Shown: piece after piece, positions 4,949 to 54,143 of the stretch
Layout of the letters: each line of letters begins with the position of its first letter
Position numbering within the stretch: position 1 is the first letter of the stretch
Assembly (NCBI GenBank): GCA_964459145.1
Contig: CAYWKC010000001.1
Coordinates: 40,200 to 104,199 of the forward strand
Reading direction: 5' to 3'
Length of the DNA stretch: 64,000 nucleotides
From: an uncultured Candidatus Saccharibacteria bacterium
GTDB lineage: Bacteria; Patescibacteriota; Minisyncoccia; Phycocordibacterales; UBA12079
Notes under the pieces: model-generated
What the model was told of the DNA's origin: nothing
Seen by the model: the letters and a program-made list of their open reading frames with translations, nothing else
Databases searched by the model: none
Program-made: the position numbers and the translations under genes

Positions 4949-4956
4949 AATGTGTT

Positions 4957-5470
4957 CTTTTATATCTATAAGCCGGATTCTGTTTACCCGACCATCGTAA
5001 AATGGTTTAGGGTTTGATAGCCATTTATCTAGGAAGATTGTTACCAATCTTCTCAAGCGGTACTTCCGGCACCACTTTTTTGAGAAGTTAAACTTCTCAA
5101 AAAAGTGGTGCCGGACACGACCTTGCACTTAGGTAAGGATTTAGCCGTTTCACCCCCTCACCCAGAACAGTGCCAACAAATTAAAATTTGTCAAAAATTA
5201 ACTAAATTTTAATTTACCATTAGGGACTGTTTTTGTGCTATTTTATGTTTGCAAAGCAAACAGCACTGTTCTGGGTGAGGGACTACACCCCCGAAAGGAT
5301 GCCTAAAATTCTTTCGAATTTTAGCGTCTCTGCTCGCACCTCTACAACCACAAAGTTGACGACGGGCGTTACCCGCTACCTTGCTCCGAGCACCAAAATA
5401 GTGCTGGAAGTGTCCGGACTTTCCTCCAAGCCTTATAAAAATAAGGCCCAGTAACTATCCGATATAAAAG
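4957..5470 (-). ncRNA. rnpB: RNase P RNA (bacterial type A) with large insertions
   Basis: Minus strand shows GGAGGAAAGTCCGGAC (P4 5' strand), GGTAACGCCCG (P10/11), ACAGAATCCGGCTTAT (P4 3' strand) and a P1 pairing CTTTTATATC/GATATAAAAG. A TAGTATAAT -10 box lies just upstream on the minus strand. Confidence 0.8.
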
Positions 5471-14020: not shown

Positions 14021-14452
14021 ATGAAAAATTGTAAATTAAAAATCAAAAAACTGGATAGGGAAGCTACCCTACCCGATTATGCTTATCTGGGAGATGCTGG
14101 TTTAGACTTATATTCTAATACTAACATTTTAATTAAATCTTTTGAGAGAAAAGTTATTCCTACTGGAGTGGCTATGGAAATTCCAGATGGCTATGTCGGT
14201 TTGATTTGGGATAAAAGTAGTTTAGGAATCAAAGAAATTTTAAAAACTTTGGGGGGAGTGGTTGATAGTGGTTATCGTGGAGAGATTAAAGTAGGATTGG
14301 TTAATCTTTCTAAAAAAGATTTTCAAATCTCTAAAGGGCAAAAAATTGCTCAGATGATTATTCAAAAGAAAGAGGAAGTTAAGGTAAAAGAGGTGGACGA
14401 TTTATCTGAAAGTGAGAGGGGAACTAAAAAGTTTGGGAGTAGTAATAGATAG
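14021..14452 (+). CDS. dut: dUTP diphosphatase
   Basis: GDAGLDLYS, IPDGYVGLIWDKSS and GGVVDSGYRGEI dUTPase motifs. Confidence 0.85.
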   Translation: MKNCKLKIKKLDREATLPDYAYLGDAGLDLYSNTNILIKSFERKVIPTGVAMEIPDGYVGLIWDKSSLGIKEILKTLGGVVDSGYRGEIKVGLVNLSKKDFQISKGQKIAQMIIQKKEEVKVKEVDDLSESERGTKKFGSSNR

Positions 14453-14496
14453 ATGATAGAGATTACATGTTAAAAGAAAAAACTGCTTAGAACTCA

Positions 14497-14525
14497 TTTT
14501 TAGCCCTTGTTTGAGGGCTAAAAAT
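14497..14525. terminator. bidirectional terminator after dut
   Basis: TTTTTAGCCC-ttgtttga-GGGCTAAAAA. Confidence 0.55.
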
Positions 14526-14551
14526 ATGAACATAGTTAAATGTCTATAAAG

Positions 14552-14572
14552 CCTGCCTGGCCGGCAGGCAGG
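14552..14572. repeat. 21-bp GC-rich palindrome flanked by 9-bp direct repeats
   Basis: CCTGCCTGGCCGGCAGGCAGG flanked on both sides by TCTATAAAG. Related copies at 20418-20438 and possibly 53883-53906. Confidence 0.5.
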
Positions 14573-14745
14573 TCTATAAAGTCGAAAGAAAATGCAGGGG
14601 AAGGGCTTTTTTAGAATACTATGTCGCAAAAGGTATATTGTGCGACGTAGTATTATTCTCCCCTTCTCCCTTTTTTAATATAAAAAATAAAAGCCACCAG
14701 ACACGAATGTCGGTGGCACCCCCTTTCTATTTTGGGAGATGTTTA

Positions 14746-14994
14746 TTAAGCTCTTTCCCAGTGGTTGGGGAAAAACTTACCTCTTTTCCCCTCCAGCCGA
14801 ATAAGACCGTCTAGGAGAACTTCACTAATAATTTCAATTTTGCCTCTTCTTCGCCCGGCGATAGCATCGCTCCGTCGAATAACCCTTTCCCCTATTTTGA
14901 ATTTTTGTAGAGGAATAGGTCTTCTGATAGTTATTTCTTCCATTCTTACCTCCTTAAAATTTCTTTTATTGTTTTTGTTTTTTTCTTTGGTCAA
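14746..14994 (-). CDS. hypothetical basic protein
   Basis: 82-aa ORF with its own downstream terminator (GCCACCGACATTCGTGTCTGGTGGC + T-run on the minus strand). Confidence 0.4.
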   Translation of the reverse strand: MTKEKNKNNKRNFKEVRMEEITIRRPIPLQKFKIGERVIRRSDAIAGRRRGKIEIISEVLLDGLIRLEGKRGKFFPNHWERA

Positions 14995-15792: not shown

Positions 15793-16194
15793 TTATATTC
15801 CTTTACAATTGCTAGCGGGGGTGTAGCCTGCCAATTCGGCTTCTTCTTTGCTATTAAACCAAATTTGATTGTCTGTTTTGATTCGTTGTGCTCCCGAACA
15901 CCACGGAGCATGATATTTATTGCTATTTTTTGAAGCCACGTACTTTCCTCCTAAAACCTGCGGGGGCTGAACTTCTTCTGTAGATTGGGATATTTGAGCT
16001 AAATTATTGTTTTCTAGGATTGAATTTTGAATTAAAATGGGTGTTTGATTTTTCTCTGTTTGAGATAATCTTCCTAAACCAAATGAGCAAAAGGCTGTCA
16101 TAATAATCAATATAATTATAAAAACGGCCTTATCTTTTGTGAGTGCATCAATTTTCTCCTTGATTTTATTGATAATTTCCTTTATACTTTTCAT
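15793..16194 (-). CDS. membrane-anchored protein with C-terminal Cys-motif domain
   Basis: N-terminal TM helix. C-terminus (YHAPWC...WFNSKEEAELAGYTPASNCKG) shares a motif with the C-terminus of the nuclease at 12419-13189. Confidence 0.5.
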   Translation of the reverse strand: MKSIKEIINKIKEKIDALTKDKAVFIIILIIMTAFCSFGLGRLSQTEKNQTPILIQNSILENNNLAQISQSTEEVQPPQVLGGKYVASKNSNKYHAPWCSGAQRIKTDNQIWFNSKEEAELAGYTPASNCKGI

Positions 16195-16255: not shown

Positions 16256-16355
16256 TTTATTATCCGCCCAAGGCGGATGACATATTTACGACTATCAAAA
16301 TTCAATAATAACTGAGTGGTGGCTCCTGAAATTTTATCCGCCCAAGGCGGATGAC
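16256..16355 (+). promoter_or_regulatory. tandem hairpin repeats upstream of rpmA (putative leader)
   Basis: Two direct copies of TTATCCGCCCAAGGCGGATGAC (16256-16281 and 16332-16355), each a GC hairpin, about 30 nt before the L27 start. Confidence 0.4.
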
Positions 16356-16386
16356 TATTTTTGTAGTCGTTGCACTCCTCAAAAAT

Positions 16387-18836: not shown

Positions 18837-19778
18837 TTGACATTAAATAAAATATTTATGATAAAAAAATATACTTCAAAAAATATCACTTGGATAGATA
18901 TGGAGGAACCTGACCGTCGAGAAATAAAATCCTTAATGAATGAATATAAAATTCATCCTTTAGTGGCCGAGGAACTTTTGATTTCTACCTTTCGACCAAC
19001 AGTTGATTTATATGATAATTTTATTTATCTTATCTTGCATTTTCCGATTTTAAGTCATTCTAATGGTGAGGTTAGTAGTTCTAACTTAGAAATTGATTTT
19101 ATTATTGGTAAAGATTTTTTCATTACAACTCGTTACAACGGAATAAACCCTTTACAAAAAACTTCCAAAATCTTTGAAATAGAAAATATTCTTAATGAAA
19201 AAAATCGTTGGGAACATGGGGGTTATCTTTTTTACTATGTGGCTCAACAATTATACAAAAATTTGATTGATGAATTGGATTATCTTGAAAATTTGCAGGA
19301 GGATATGGAAAGCGGTATTTTTGGTGGAAATGAAAAGAAAATGGTCAAGAAAATTTCGCAGGTTAGCCACAATTTGCTTGATTTTAGACAAGCTATTCTG
19401 CCACACAAAGAAGTTTTAGATTCATTAGAAAAAATCGGAGGTGAATTTTTCGGTAAAGATTTTTCTTATTATTTAAAGGATGTCAACAATAAATATCGTA
19501 AAGTGTCTCATATTATAGAAACGAATATAGAAAATTTAAAAGAATTAAGAATCACCAACGATTCTCTTTTGACAACCAAACAAAATGAAACCATGAAAAT
19601 TTTTACGATTTTAGCCTTCGTAACTTTTCCTCTGTCTTTGTTTGCTTCTCTTTTTGGTATGAATGCTGCCTTTATGCCAATTATTGGAATGAAATACGAT
19701 TTCTGGTACATTGTCGGGATTATGTTGTTTTTGACTGGATTAATGTTTACTTTTTTCAAATATAAAAAATGGTTCTAA
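18837..19778 (+). CDS. corA: CorA-family divalent cation transporter
   Basis: C-terminal two TM helices with the GMN motif (FGMNAAFMP). Confidence 0.75.
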   Translation: MTLNKIFMIKKYTSKNITWIDMEEPDRREIKSLMNEYKIHPLVAEELLISTFRPTVDLYDNFIYLILHFPILSHSNGEVSSSNLEIDFIIGKDFFITTRYNGINPLQKTSKIFEIENILNEKNRWEHGGYLFYYVAQQLYKNLIDELDYLENLQEDMESGIFGGNEKKMVKKISQVSHNLLDFRQAILPHKEVLDSLEKIGGEFFGKDFSYYLKDVNNKYRKVSHIIETNIENLKELRITNDSLLTTKQNETMKIFTILAFVTFPLSLFASLFGMNAAFMPIIGMKYDFWYIVGIMLFLTGLMFTFFKYKKWF

Positions 19779-21223
19779 AATTATTCAATACTTTAGGTAG
19801 AAAAAAACAAGAATTTAAACCACTAAAAGATGGACAAGTTTCTTTTTATTATTGTGGTCCGACTGTTTATTCTCAACAACATATTGGAAATTTAAGGGGG
19901 GCGGTCTGCGCTGATAGTATTCGTCGTTCTTTAGAATATTTGGGTTATTCAGTTAATTTTGTTTCTAATTATACTGATGTGGGACATTTAACTTCGGATG
20001 AAGATGAGGGTGAAGATAAAATTGAACAAGGAGCTAAAAAAGAAGGTCTCTCCCCTGCTGATATTACTAACAAATATATTAAAATTTATGAAAAAGACAC
20101 CGAAAAATTGAATATTCTTCCTCCCACTACTCGTTGTCGAGCCACTGACTATATCAAACCAATGGAAGAAATGGTGGCAACTCTTTTAAAAAAAGGTTTT
20201 GCTTATCAAACTGAATTAGCTATTTATTTTGATGTTTCTAAAGCAAATAATTATACTCAACTATCAGGACAAAATTTAGAAGATTTAAAAACGGGAGCGG
20301 GAACGGGCGATGTAGTTGACCCACAGAAAAAAAATCAAAATGATTTTGTTCTTTGGTTTTTCAAAACAGGCGTTCATGCTAAGGCCTTGCAGACATGGGA
20401 GTCCCCGTGGGGTGAAGCCTGCCTGCCGGCAAGGCAGGGTTTTCCAGGGTGGCATATTGAATGTTCGGTTATGGCAAAGAAACATCTGGGAGAAACCCTT
20501 GATATTCACATGGGAGGAATTGAACATATCCCTATTCATCACACTAACGAAATAGCTCAAAGTGAGTCAGCGAATGGAGTAAAATATGTTAATTATTGGT
20601 TGCATAATGAACATTTGGGAATTGATAATACCAAAATGAGCAAGTCGTTAGGTAATGTTGTTTATGTAAATAACATTGAAGAAAAAGGTTTCCACCCTTT
20701 AGCTTTAAGATTTTTCTTCTTGCAAGCTCATTACCGTTCTAAACAAAATTTTACTTGGAAGGCTATGGAAGCAGCTAAAAATGGATTAACTCATCTTGAT
20801 AACCAAAGGGCTGATTTAGGTGATGAAGTAGGAAAAATTTCAAAAGAATTTAAACAAAAATTTATAGAAAAAATTAGTGATGATTTTAATTTACCACAAG
20901 CCTTGGCTATTGTTTCAGAGGTTCTTAAATCTGACTTATCAAAAGCAGACAAACTAGCGACTATTTTGGATTTTGATAAAGTTTTGGGGTTAAATTTAAA
21001 ACAAAAAAGGTTTAATTTGTTCACAAAAACAACAAAGTTTATTACAAAAGGATATGATGTAGAAATGACCCTTAACAATAAAATTTCTAATTTGTTAAAA
21101 GAAAGAGATGCTGCTCGGAAAAATAAAGATTGGGCTGAGTCTGATAGGATTAGAGATGAAATAGAATCTCAAGGTTATACTGTTAAAGACACTCCAGACG
21201 GAACTCAAATCTTTAATCCTTGA
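19769..21223 (+). CDS. cysS: cysteinyl-tRNA synthetase
   Basis: YYCGPTVYSQQHIGNLRGA (HIGH) and KMSKSLGN. Carries a GC-rich in-frame insertion between SPWG and PGWHIEC. Confidence 0.9.
   Translation: MVLKLFNTLGRKKQEFKPLKDGQVSFYYCGPTVYSQQHIGNLRGAVCADSIRRSLEYLGYSVNFVSNYTDVGHLTSDEDEGEDKIEQGAKKEGLSPADITNKYIKIYEKDTEKLNILPPTTRCRATDYIKPMEEMVATLLKKGFAYQTELAIYFDVSKANNYTQLSGQNLEDLKTGAGTGDVVDPQKKNQNDFVLWFFKTGVHAKALQTWESPWGEACLPARQGFPGWHIECSVMAKKHLGETLDIHMGGIEHIPIHHTNEIAQSESANGVKYVNYWLHNEHLGIDNTKMSKSLGNVVYVNNIEEKGFHPLALRFFFLQAHYRSKQNFTWKAMEAAKNGLTHLDNQRADLGDEVGKISKEFKQKFIEKISDDFNLPQALAIVSEVLKSDLSKADKLATILDFDKVLGLNLKQKRFNLFTKTTKFITKGYDVEMTLNNKISNLLKERDAARKNKDWAESDRIRDEIESQGYTVKDTPDGTQIFNP
20418..20438. 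repeat. GC-rich palindrome embedded in-frame in cysS
   Basis: CCTGCCTGCCGGCAAGGCAGG encodes ACLPARQ between the conserved SPWG and PGWHIEC motifs. Near-identical to the intergenic palindrome at 14552-14572. Confidence 0.55.
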
Positions 21224-53599: not shown

Positions 53600-53632
53600 A
53601 ACCCCCAAGAATCAGGGCCGGTTGGGGGGGGT
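53600..53632. terminator. bidirectional terminator (dnaE and tRNA-Glu)
   Basis: AACCCCCAAGAATCAGGGCCGGTTGGGGGGGTT with flanking T and A runs. Confidence 0.55.
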
Positions 53633-53657
53633 TAGGGTGTTTTTAGTACCAAAAGAG

Positions 53658-53729
53658 TAGCTCTACCGGGAATTGAACCCGGATTTCCGCCTTGAGAAGG
53701 CGATGTCCTAACCGTTAGACGATAGAGCC
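53658..53729 (-). tRNA. tRNA-Glu (CUC)
   Basis: Acceptor GGCTCTA/TAGAGCT, D-arm TCGTCTAACGGTTAGGAC, anticodon loop TTCTCAA, T-arm CCGGGTTCAATTCCCGG. Confidence 0.8.
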
Positions 53730-53951
53730 AAATATTATTTAAAAATTAAACTTGTTACTATATTAACATTTTTCTTAGAACATCGCCTTCTATGATGCTC
53801 TCTCTATTTTCTATCTCACTATCGTTCAATAAAGAAAATTTTTTCTTTCAGAAAAACCGGATGAAAAGCCAAGTAGCCTGTCTGCCGACAGAGGCAGGTT
53901 GGCTTTTCATTCCAATACCCATTAGACGATAGAGCCAAATACTCCTATATG
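53730..53951 (+). repeat. tRNA-Glu 5'-side element ending in a 20-nt copy of the tRNA 5' end plus flank
   Basis: 53932-53951 TTAGACGATAGAGCCAAATA matches 53715-53734. Hairpin GAAAAGCCAA...TTGGCTTTTC at 53873-53918 encloses a GC palindrome related to that at 14552. Confidence 0.45.
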
Positions 53952-54143
53952 TTACTGTTTTTCTACTAAAAATCAAAGTTATTTACATGAACCCCCCCCC
54001 AATCACCCCCAATCACCCCAAAACCGCCCTACTTCTTAGGGGTTTAACCTTATTTATGAAGTATCTGTGAAGGTTATCCGCAAAGGTTCAACCTCCGCGA
54101 ACCAAAAAAACAACTCGGCAATTAAAAATATGTCATTTCTATT

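Follow-up and report, generated by a model that had tools for sequence, protein, structure and literature searches.

A family of very short palindromes rich in guanine and cytosine (GC), hereafter P (consensus CCTGCCTGCCGGCAGGCAGG, 20 nt, with heritable variants of 21-22 nt), is represented by three copies in a 64-kb stretch of DNA from a member of the Patescibacteria (candidate phyla radiation, CPR). This stretch, to which we refer throughout as the window, has a GC content of ~33% and encodes seven tRNAs along with an RNase P RNA of bacterial type; one copy of P is intergenic (14552-14572), one lies inside the gene for cysteine-tRNA ligase, cysS (20418-20438), and one is diverged (53877-53898). 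We consider it probable that the copies of P are those of a very small non-autonomous insertion element, which would be moved in trans at the DNA level. In all base-level comparisons of filled and empty sites (about a dozen) the filled one is longer by a single block of exactly 20 or 21 nt, and no flanking sequence is duplicated; to judge by these alignments, P is shown to enter DNA as such a block without producing a target-site duplication. The features of the window that concern the first two copies are:

14543..14551, no strand assigned: left 9-mer TCTATAAAG, directly abutting the palindrome at 14552-14572
14552..14572, no strand assigned: intergenic copy of P, CCTGCCTGGCCGGCAGGCAGG, a 21-nt variant equal to the consensus plus one central G
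14573..14581, no strand assigned: right 9-mer TCTATAAAG, directly abutting the palindrome; second tandem unit
19769..21223, plus strand: cysS, cysteine-tRNA ligase, 484 aa, the host gene, in which the insert corresponds to residues 217-223
20418..20438, plus strand: copy of P in cysS, CCTGCCTGCCGGCAAGGCAGG, a 21-nt variant; codons GCC TGC CTG CCG GCA AGG CAG = ACLPARQ

Both palindromes, and the 9-mer on either side of the first, are present in the letters as a preliminary description of this DNA had reported them, and the pattern CCTGCC-N3-15-GGCAGG has no match in the window outside the two palindromes, and none in 100 dinucleotide-preserving shuffles. The intergenic copy has arms of 8 bp and a centre of 5 nt; as single-stranded DNA it folds with −10.1 kcal/mol (z = −4.1). 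The surrounding gene order (dut ... NUDIX ... L27 ... L9 ... S41 peptidase ... CorA ... cysS) is kept in relatives, and in the closest syntenic one, L248 (contigs and loci used for comparison are given by L numbers), the intergenic region can be followed nearly base for base: it reads AAATG TCTATAAAG TCCATAAAG TCGAAAG, with the palindrome absent. The segment between conserved anchors measures 48 nt in both L248 and L001, and the same in the window after subtraction of 21 nt, the palindrome being an exact 21-nt insertion with respect to both relatives. Since the tandem 9-mers exist in L248 without the palindrome, and since the segment length is the same, the 9-mers pre-date the insertion and P landed exactly between them. 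On this evidence the 9-mers at 14543-14551 and 14573-14581 are older tandem-repeat units, and the target-site duplication proposed for this copy in the preliminary description is rejected on the three-species alignment (window, L248, L001): a perfect direct repeat on either side of an insertion need not be a target-site duplication. The whole arrangement at 14.5 kb is base-identical in eight separately assembled contigs (JGI, ENA, Logan; eight sample or run accessions), and thus is not an assembly artefact. Samples in which this strain is present include JGI 3300028299, 3300028162 and 3300028168 and the runs SRR8437287 and SRR8437218. An adapter or assembly origin was likewise rejected for the copies of P as a group, which are internal to contigs, reproducible across samples, diverged at orthologous sites between species, and frame-preserving.

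The host gene of the second copy has homologues named cysteine--tRNA ligase that carry PF01406, and the enzyme (CysRS) of the window is closest to proteins of Patescibacteria, with identity of at most 72%. The palindrome had been expected from the sequence to add about 7 codons (ACLPARQ) between the SPWG and PGWHIEC motifs without loss of frame, and orthologue alignment bears this out: the window reads SPWG-E-ACLPARQ-GF-PGWHIEC, versus SPWG-EGF-PGWHIEC in L001 (70% identity), and L001 together with nine other short-loop orthologues follows the form SPWG-xGF-PGWH. In the DNA the seven codons listed above stand between GAA and GGT, versus GAG GGT in L001, i.e. 21 extra bases with a junction ambiguity of at most 1 nt and no duplication. 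Read from this alignment, P has truly been inserted into an essential gene here, and in frame. The preliminary description had also raised the case that relatives might share the extra residues without the palindromic DNA; what we found is that relatives either have no insert or carry the palindrome, or a decayed remnant of it, as well. Among the 120 best CysRS clusters, two more have an insert at the same site (P0004, ACLPVRQ, DNA CCTGCCTGCCGGTGAGGCAGG; P0005, ACLPTRQ, DNA CCTGCCTGCCGACAAGGCAAG), and 15-nt remnants occupy the site in two further clusters (KPDERQ and KPDPRQ). Every insert-bearing CysRS is sister to insert-less ones in a neighbour-joining tree, and the three insert-bearing genes share an identical left arm, GCC TGC CTG CCG, despite differences at the flanking synonymous sites. 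The history of the site was either one of repeated gain at a single hotspot, or one of an old gain followed by many exact losses and accompanied by constraint at the DNA level.

The insert lies in the loop (residues 210-229) ahead of the zinc-site motif PGWHIEC, a loop whose short form is SPWGxGF. A second, long form found in Patescibacteria in the survey of loci L001-L080, SPFxSPLVENGxGF (SPFxSxLVxNGxGF), is unrelated in sequence and has no palindromic DNA, though it is longer by exactly 7 residues, the size of the P insert; because many CPR CysRSs have this form, the loop can be said to tolerate length changes. In an AlphaFold2 model (49-sequence alignment; mean predicted local distance difference test, pLDDT, 85.4) residues 217-223 are predicted as coil in the stretch that joins strand 210-212 to strand 222-226, and pLDDT falls below 50 at positions 217-219; both the coil position and the low pLDDT fit a predicted surface loop.

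The remaining comparisons of filled and empty sites involve other genes and other hosts. With respect to the open reading frame (ORF) at 15793-16194 of the window, L004 has RLPDRQA added in frame (EVQP-RLPDRQA-PQV versus EVQP-PQV), again exactly 21 nt without duplication. The orthologous site of a phage tRNA-Met reads GAGG-P-TCGCCGG in L113 and GAGGTCGCCGG in L254 and L255, with the downstream gene common to all. Eight more pairs come from duplicated 5' segments of tRNA genes (L120, L167, L173, L196, two in L217 and two in L222): the intact copy lies a few hundred bases from the P-bearing segment, and the difference is exactly 20 nt in each. A family of hairpin repeats in L109, in which one member has P and the others do not, has copies that are only ~73% alike, so that it offers a looser comparison. 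The miniature palindromic insertion envisaged in the preliminary description is thus upheld by the exact insertions in cysS and at 14552-14572 relative to empty relatives, and by the many further copies elsewhere.

Inside genes, P behaves as a short stretch of coding sequence. It has no stop codon in any frame, and its three frames read PACRQAG, LPAGRQ and CLPAGR; 10 of 12 P-bearing ORFs use the reading xLPAGRQx, which is the only frame without cysteine. The ORFs with the exact 20-mer were assigned through Pfam to PheS, RecR, RNase J, UvrC, GH115, PurH, SecA, a P-type ATPase and LigA, and the domains continue across P. In low-GC contigs 6 of 9 21-mers fall in long ORFs, versus 12 of 83 20-mers (Fisher p = 0.0015), an enrichment that carries the signature of selection for frame-preserving events. 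This frame constraint and the continuity of the Pfam domains suggest that P would be translated, not spliced out. In general, these data show that P persists in genes where the frame stays open and where a loop can accommodate the extra 6-7 residues (usually xLPAGRQx or ACLPxRQ), as in the CysRS of the window. One of these genes belongs to a host outside the CPR: L153 encodes a GH115 whose named relatives belong to the Chitinophagaceae (Bacteroidota), and that has the insert SLPAGRQ, present in 1 of 120 homologues and missing from the nearest one (85% identity).

The variants of P also form families. The 21-mer of cysS, CCTGCCTGCCGGCAAGGCAGG, is present twice in the unrelated contig L178, and L122 and L098 have other variants of 21-22 nt in pairs; in most variants the difference lies at the centre or close to it (TGGCCGGCA, TGCCGGCAA, TACCGGACA, TGCGGGCA). 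Their recurrence both within and between contigs points to copying from existing copies and not to untemplated synthesis. In contig L178 (37% GC), the gene for the NAD-dependent DNA ligase (LigA; L178:6731-8905, minus strand) has three separate in-frame insertions of P. Direct repeats of a similar heptamer type (GATTTTTGATTTT, GGTTTTAGGTT, GGTTTTGGGTTTT) adjoin each of them, which suggests that P either targets such repeats or can move together with them.

The distribution of P was followed in a CPR sample of 80 loci picked solely for cysS (1.2 Mb; ~1.28 Mb with the window), in which, window included, there are 20 P-like matches (≤4 edits) versus 0.7 in shuffles; two of the 20, one of them in L004, are the perfect 20-mer. 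The exact 20-mer is also present in 35 stretches of IMG/VR viral contigs and in at least 120 metagenome contigs, a figure that makes the abundance and the taxonomic range of P lower bounds. The preliminary description had called for a search for further copies, and CPR loci, viral contigs and metagenome contigs all supply them. The P-bearing contigs range from 29 to 71% GC and derive from groundwater, sediments, wetlands and soils; the hosts comprise Patescibacteria, at least one Bacteroidota genome and GC-rich phage contigs, and include many uncultured lineages. No 20/20 match was found in 2.3 Gb of cultured or deposited phage genomes, nor in 7.3 Gb of plasmid records. In the open-access literature we found no paper with the 20-mer, its 16-mer core or the peptides LPAGRQ, CLPAGR and PACRQAG, and topic searches returned nothing relevant.

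Some contigs combine P with other repeats. The 'viral' contig L109 (IMGVR_UViG_3300037242_000417, 60% GC) is packed with several nested families of hairpin repeats, for example GGGTGCCCCATCCTTG...CAAGGGTGGGTC with varying centres, and has 6 copies of P over 29.5 kb, one of them inside another repeat. A long hairpin repeat of the type 'GTCATTCCGAGCGAAGCG...' often embeds P (L213:5260-5538, and also L201, L168, L142 and L027); we take it to be a repeat that is common in metagenomes and a source of spurious ORFs.

Over 336 ends of P there is no conserved target motif; the first outward position is slightly depleted in A. Many flanks resemble 7-9-nt tandem units, and inverted repeats of at least 9 nt are found in the 25-nt flanks of a minority of copies (3.1% vs 0.2%). 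Direct repeats adjoin P in L091 (8 bp), L107 (7 bp) and L097 (14 bp); searches for empty sites of the viral copies in L091 and L107 returned filled contigs only. In tRNA genes, the insertion points are at the stem/loop junctions of the cloverleaf: in the D-arm (L120, L202, L196, L173, L217, L222), the variable loop (L113) or the T-arm (L158). Most of the tRNA-borne copies lie in truncated gene fragments and not in working tRNAs. The phage tRNA-Met with P in its variable loop (L113:2239-2330) is still called by ARAGORN, as a tRNA with a long extra arm, and at L090:8616, in a related contig, a 13-nt deletion adjoining P has removed part of the T-arm.

A tRNA gene is also the setting of the third copy in the window, for which the features are:

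53657..53729, minus strand: intact tRNA-Glu (CUC), from a tRNA call
53861..53910, no strand assigned: larger hairpin ATGAAAAGCCAA ... TTGGCTTTTCAT, with the third copy of P as its apex; −16.8 kcal/mol, z = −5.9
53877..53898, no strand assigned: diverged third copy of P, CCTGTCTGCCGACAGAGGCAGG, from a fuzzy search of the consensus with ≤4 edits
53919..53940, minus strand: duplicated 5' fragment of tRNA-Glu, atttGGCTCTATCGTCTAATGG, upstream of the intact tRNA-Glu and beside the third copy of P

The preliminary description had placed a third related GC hairpin in the tRNA-Glu element. The G-run hairpin by the tRNA (53615-53631) is unrelated to P and was rejected as a member; the element does hold a true diverged copy, at 53877-53898, and a variant related to it was recovered by the same search at L003:4994. 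A C-rich short tandem repeat, CCCCCCCCCAATCACCCCCAATCACCCCAAAACCGCCC, adjoins this locus at 53985-54030 and is unusual at 33% GC. Taken together, the three copies in the window look like fixed relics.

We clustered the ORFs within 1.5 kb of ~170 copies of P. The recurrent family is a stand-alone GIY-YIG nuclease (~85 aa, PF01541), present near P in 7 contigs and within 70 nt of it in 6; besides this one, only phage genes shared by related phage contigs recur, and over the same 1.5 kb there is no recurrent family of transposases, Y1/RAYT proteins, reverse transcriptases or templating enzymes. In L120, L167, L173, L196, L217 and L222 the GIY-YIG ORF, P and a duplicated tRNA segment are found together in a constant layout: a displaced 5' segment of a tRNA gene, with one or two copies of P at the D-stem/loop junctions, is followed by the GIY-YIG gene and then by an intact tRNA with the same 5' sequence. 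Cassettes chosen independently of P (L023, L057, L175) are laid out likewise but contain other GC palindromes. In the tRNA-Glu locus of the window the fragment, the P-like copy and the intact tRNA match this layout, except for the nuclease gene, which this locus lacks. The upstream tRNA segment is riddled with GC palindromes in all nine loci; they give the impression of one family of selfish, tRNA-targeting cassettes, carried by uncultured bacteria of low GC content. In the sampling anchored on the nuclease a single protein matched itself only. In L213 the composite GTCATTCCGAGCGAAGCG-type repeat lies directly downstream of a GIY-YIG gene.

These results can be assembled into a scheme for the movement of P. 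An enzyme that recognizes the hairpin or the palindrome would cut and rejoin the target DNA without staggered nicks, and folded single-stranded targets, such as the D-arms of tRNA genes, would seem to be favoured. The best candidate for such an enzyme may be the stand-alone GIY-YIG nuclease of ~85 aa, in whose cassettes the displaced half of the tRNA contains P along with other GC palindromes. A more specific version, in which an undescribed mode of transposition has a GIY-YIG nuclease (Slx1-like, structure-specific) or another enzyme cut folded single-stranded DNA and ligate in the 20-nt hairpin with no target duplication, we regard as possible and on balance doubtful. We know of no GIY-YIG enzyme that disperses a 20-nt palindrome.

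Several observations weigh against a mobile element of this kind. The mover of P is itself an enzyme that we infer, and the nuclease a candidate only: just ~4% of the copies adjoin a GIY-YIG gene, no GIY-YIG ORF was found in the 64-kb window, and the association may be an indirect one, since the cassettes give rise to tRNA fragments that are dispensable and can therefore keep insertions. That P prefers hairpin apices in general was rejected when P with its 20-nt flanks was folded and compared with random genomic split points (6.47 flank-flank pairs, versus 6.97 in the controls). Direct repeats of at least 8 nt are enriched in the 25-nt flanks (9.9% vs 1.6%), for which the scheme does not account. 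Exact 20-mers occur in frame without a consistent 1-nt duplication at the junction, so that some junctions must be imprecise or compensated. The occupation of the identical cysS site in three scattered lineages needs a strong hotspot or many precise losses. Finally, no presence/absence polymorphism was seen in the population of the window, the eight contigs being identical.

Other explanations of P can be judged by the same data. The one closest to the preliminary description is a classical mini-transposon similar to miniature inverted-repeat transposable elements (MITEs), in which staggered cuts by a transposase leave a target-site duplication of fixed length, here 9 bp. The perfect 9-mers around the 14.5-kb copy, the adjacent repeats in L091, L107 and L097 and the enrichment of direct repeats in the flanks are what it would produce; in L248, however, both 9-mers stand without a palindrome and the segment has kept its length, there is no duplication in ten other base-level comparisons, and the junction ambiguity in cysS is at most 1 nt. 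Moreover, the repeats vary in length from 7 to 14 nt and ~90% of the copies have no such repeat, there are no terminal repeats matching a resident insertion sequence (IS), the whole element being one palindrome, and no transposase family recurs near P: we find this explanation very unlikely. Spread at the RNA level is rather improbable as well, if less readily dismissed. Here a hairpin RNA would be ligated into the loops of folded RNA (D, variable and T loops of tRNAs, hairpins of mRNAs) and copied back by a reverse transcriptase, or P would be a tiny intron-like element, comparable to the short tRNA introns that transpose in Thermoproteales archaea. The position of the tRNA insertions at cloverleaf junctions argues for this route, such a fold being native to RNA, as does the fact that the tRNA-Met of L113 is still called with P as an extra arm; yet the single strand of a tRNA gene can take the same fold, most tRNA-borne copies are in truncated fragments, and no reverse transcriptase recurs near P. 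The constraint on frame, as seen in the enrichment of 21-mers in ORFs (p = 0.0015), and the Pfam domains that continue across P speak against an intron in particular, which is removed from the transcript and under no such constraint.

The copies might also be a conserved functional site (an operator for a dimeric protein, a recombination site or a terminator) kept by selection instead of inserted. A perfect palindrome of 20 bp is the kind of site that a dimeric protein typically binds; between the S41 peptidase gene and rplI of L003 and L004 there is a copy, followed in L004 by a T-run reminiscent of a terminator; and the left arm shared by three cysS lineages despite differing synonymous flanks fits constraint at the DNA level. 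Against this, P is found in many unrelated housekeeping genes and in tRNA fragments at no constant position relative to genes, the orthologous sites of relatives are empty, the hosts are unrelated phyla and phages, and a simple scan of 14300-14900 gave no terminator-like site. Single copies may possibly have been co-opted for a function; that the family as a whole is such a site seems highly unlikely. The last explanation is a repair scar, formed when each 3' end of a double-strand break is extended by the same 10 nt (CCTGCCTGCC), or a defined hairpin oligonucleotide is inserted by ligation, before the ends are joined. This would give automatically a palindrome with a variable centre, and indeed most variants differ at or near the centre; exact, duplication-free insertion is expected of blunt breaks, and P is associated with a family of nuclease genes. 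The recurrence of identical off-centre variants (the cysS 21-mer twice in L178, the pairs in L122 and L098) indicates instead copying and not fresh junction noise, and no templating enzyme recurs near P, which leaves a scar very improbable.

As a probable non-autonomous insertion element, P can be set beside several known systems. Rickettsia palindromic elements (RPEs), which are roughly 100-150 bp long and confined to Rickettsia and relatives, resemble it as short dispersed palindromic repeats that occur in frame in essential genes, add a peptide at tolerated surface positions, and are found also in intergenic regions and RNA genes. P differs from them in its size (20-21 nt, 6-7 residues), in its unrelated sequence, and in being identical across phyla and phages. 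No repeat of RPE size surrounds the 14552 and cysS copies, and the genes that P enters in frame stay intact (cysS, PheS, RecR, RNase J, UvrC, PurH, SecA, LigA, GH115): the parallel with Rickettsia drawn in the preliminary description holds for the behaviour, an in-frame palindrome in an essential gene, and not for membership of the RPE family, from which size and sequence separate P. Yeast and fungal mitochondrial GC clusters are organellar and measure ~30-50 bp, often with a short duplicated AT/TAG motif on their flanks; the ribosome bypasses byp elements. These and the double-hairpin elements are likewise GC-rich palindromic mini-insertions in an AT-rich genome, intergenic and sometimes coding, that seem mobile and have no enzyme of their own, whereas P is bacterial and phage-borne, has no duplication, and appears to be translated. 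The window does have a GC-rich palindrome in a genome of 33% GC; its RNase P RNA, tRNAs and cysS mark the host as bacterial and not organellar.

With regard to the chemistry of insertion, a likeness exists to the repetitive extragenic palindromes (REPs) and REPINs moved by RAYTs (HUH Y1 enzymes) and to IS200/IS605: these too are or use palindromes of 20-40 nt, without target-site duplication, non-autonomous and probably dependent on folded single-stranded DNA. REPs are species-specific and extragenic, with a conserved GTAG foot recognised by RAYT; P has no conserved flanking tetranucleotide (a GTAG foot is found only at few copies, such as 53873-53876 of the window and in L109), lies inside genes, is not species-specific, and has no Y1 transposase recurring nearby. 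Free-standing GIY-YIG homing endonuclease cassettes are known, e.g. phage T4 SegB in a tRNA gene cluster, and homing moves the nuclease gene itself by gene conversion. The small GIY-YIG genes found here in tRNA genes, where duplication of a tRNA segment makes the tRNA gene whole again, recall these cassettes, but most copies of P are solitary and far from any such gene. In Thermoproteales archaea, short tRNA introns (bulge-helix-bulge), removed by the splicing endonuclease, transpose; they are similarly very short, near-identical insertions at many non-canonical positions of different tRNA genes, whereas P is found in bacteria and phages, mostly in truncated tRNA copies, and in frame in protein genes. 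P is closest in behaviour to RPEs and yeast mitochondrial GC clusters, and in insertion chemistry to REP/RAYT or IS200/IS605. It lacks defining features of each: the size and sequence of RPEs, the organelle and duplications of GC clusters, the foot, extragenic position and species specificity of REPs, and the duplication and parent IS of MITEs. We place P among the miniature palindromic insertion elements, with a real chance that its mechanism is new.

If P is an element of this kind, it would be among the smallest repeat elements with signs of mobility known to us: 20 nt, with no gene and no duplication. Its reach would be unusual, as it is identical in Patescibacteria, Bacteroidota and GC-rich phage contigs and missing from the cultured phage and plasmid collections, and conserved essential enzymes of streamlined genomes (CysRS, SecA, LigA, PheRS, RecR, RNase J) would have been altered by insertions of 6-7 residues. 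P could then be used as a marker of recent DNA traffic in uncultured communities, and would account for the odd 'LPAGRQ' loops and the broken tRNA calls that arise when metagenomes are annotated. Its association with the GIY-YIG cassettes of tRNA genes would be a concrete starting point in the search for the enzyme; were the mode of transposition by a GIY-YIG or other enzyme to hold, one identical 20-mer could spread across phyla and phages, adding peptide loops to essential proteins.

A few other features of the region can be reported. Just downstream of the 14552-14572 palindrome, between dut and a small minus-strand ORF, lies a strongly conserved intergenic long hairpin (14583-14690; GGGGAAGGG ... 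ATGTCGCAAAAGGTATATTGTGCGAC ... CCCCTTCTCCC), the core of which is identical in L248, L001 and L002, while the proteins there are only ~70-80% identical. The 14.5-kb locus gave no credible match in Rfam even at permissive thresholds, and the hairpin may be an undescribed small RNA. At the site equivalent to that of P in the window, L002 (5330-5450) has two copies of another small GC hairpin (GAGGTTCAACCTCGG, GAGGTTGAACCTCGA), ~60 nt apart. In the window, TTATCCGCCCAAGGCGGATGAC is present as two direct copies 74 nt apart (16259-16283 and 16333-16357) in the leader of the L27 gene (16351-16659); it forms a 7-bp GC hairpin and is not P. The class A RNase P RNA (4953-5470, minus strand) spans 518 nt, against 367 positions in the model, with a score of 105.8 close to the gathering threshold of 100, and therefore must carry large insertions.

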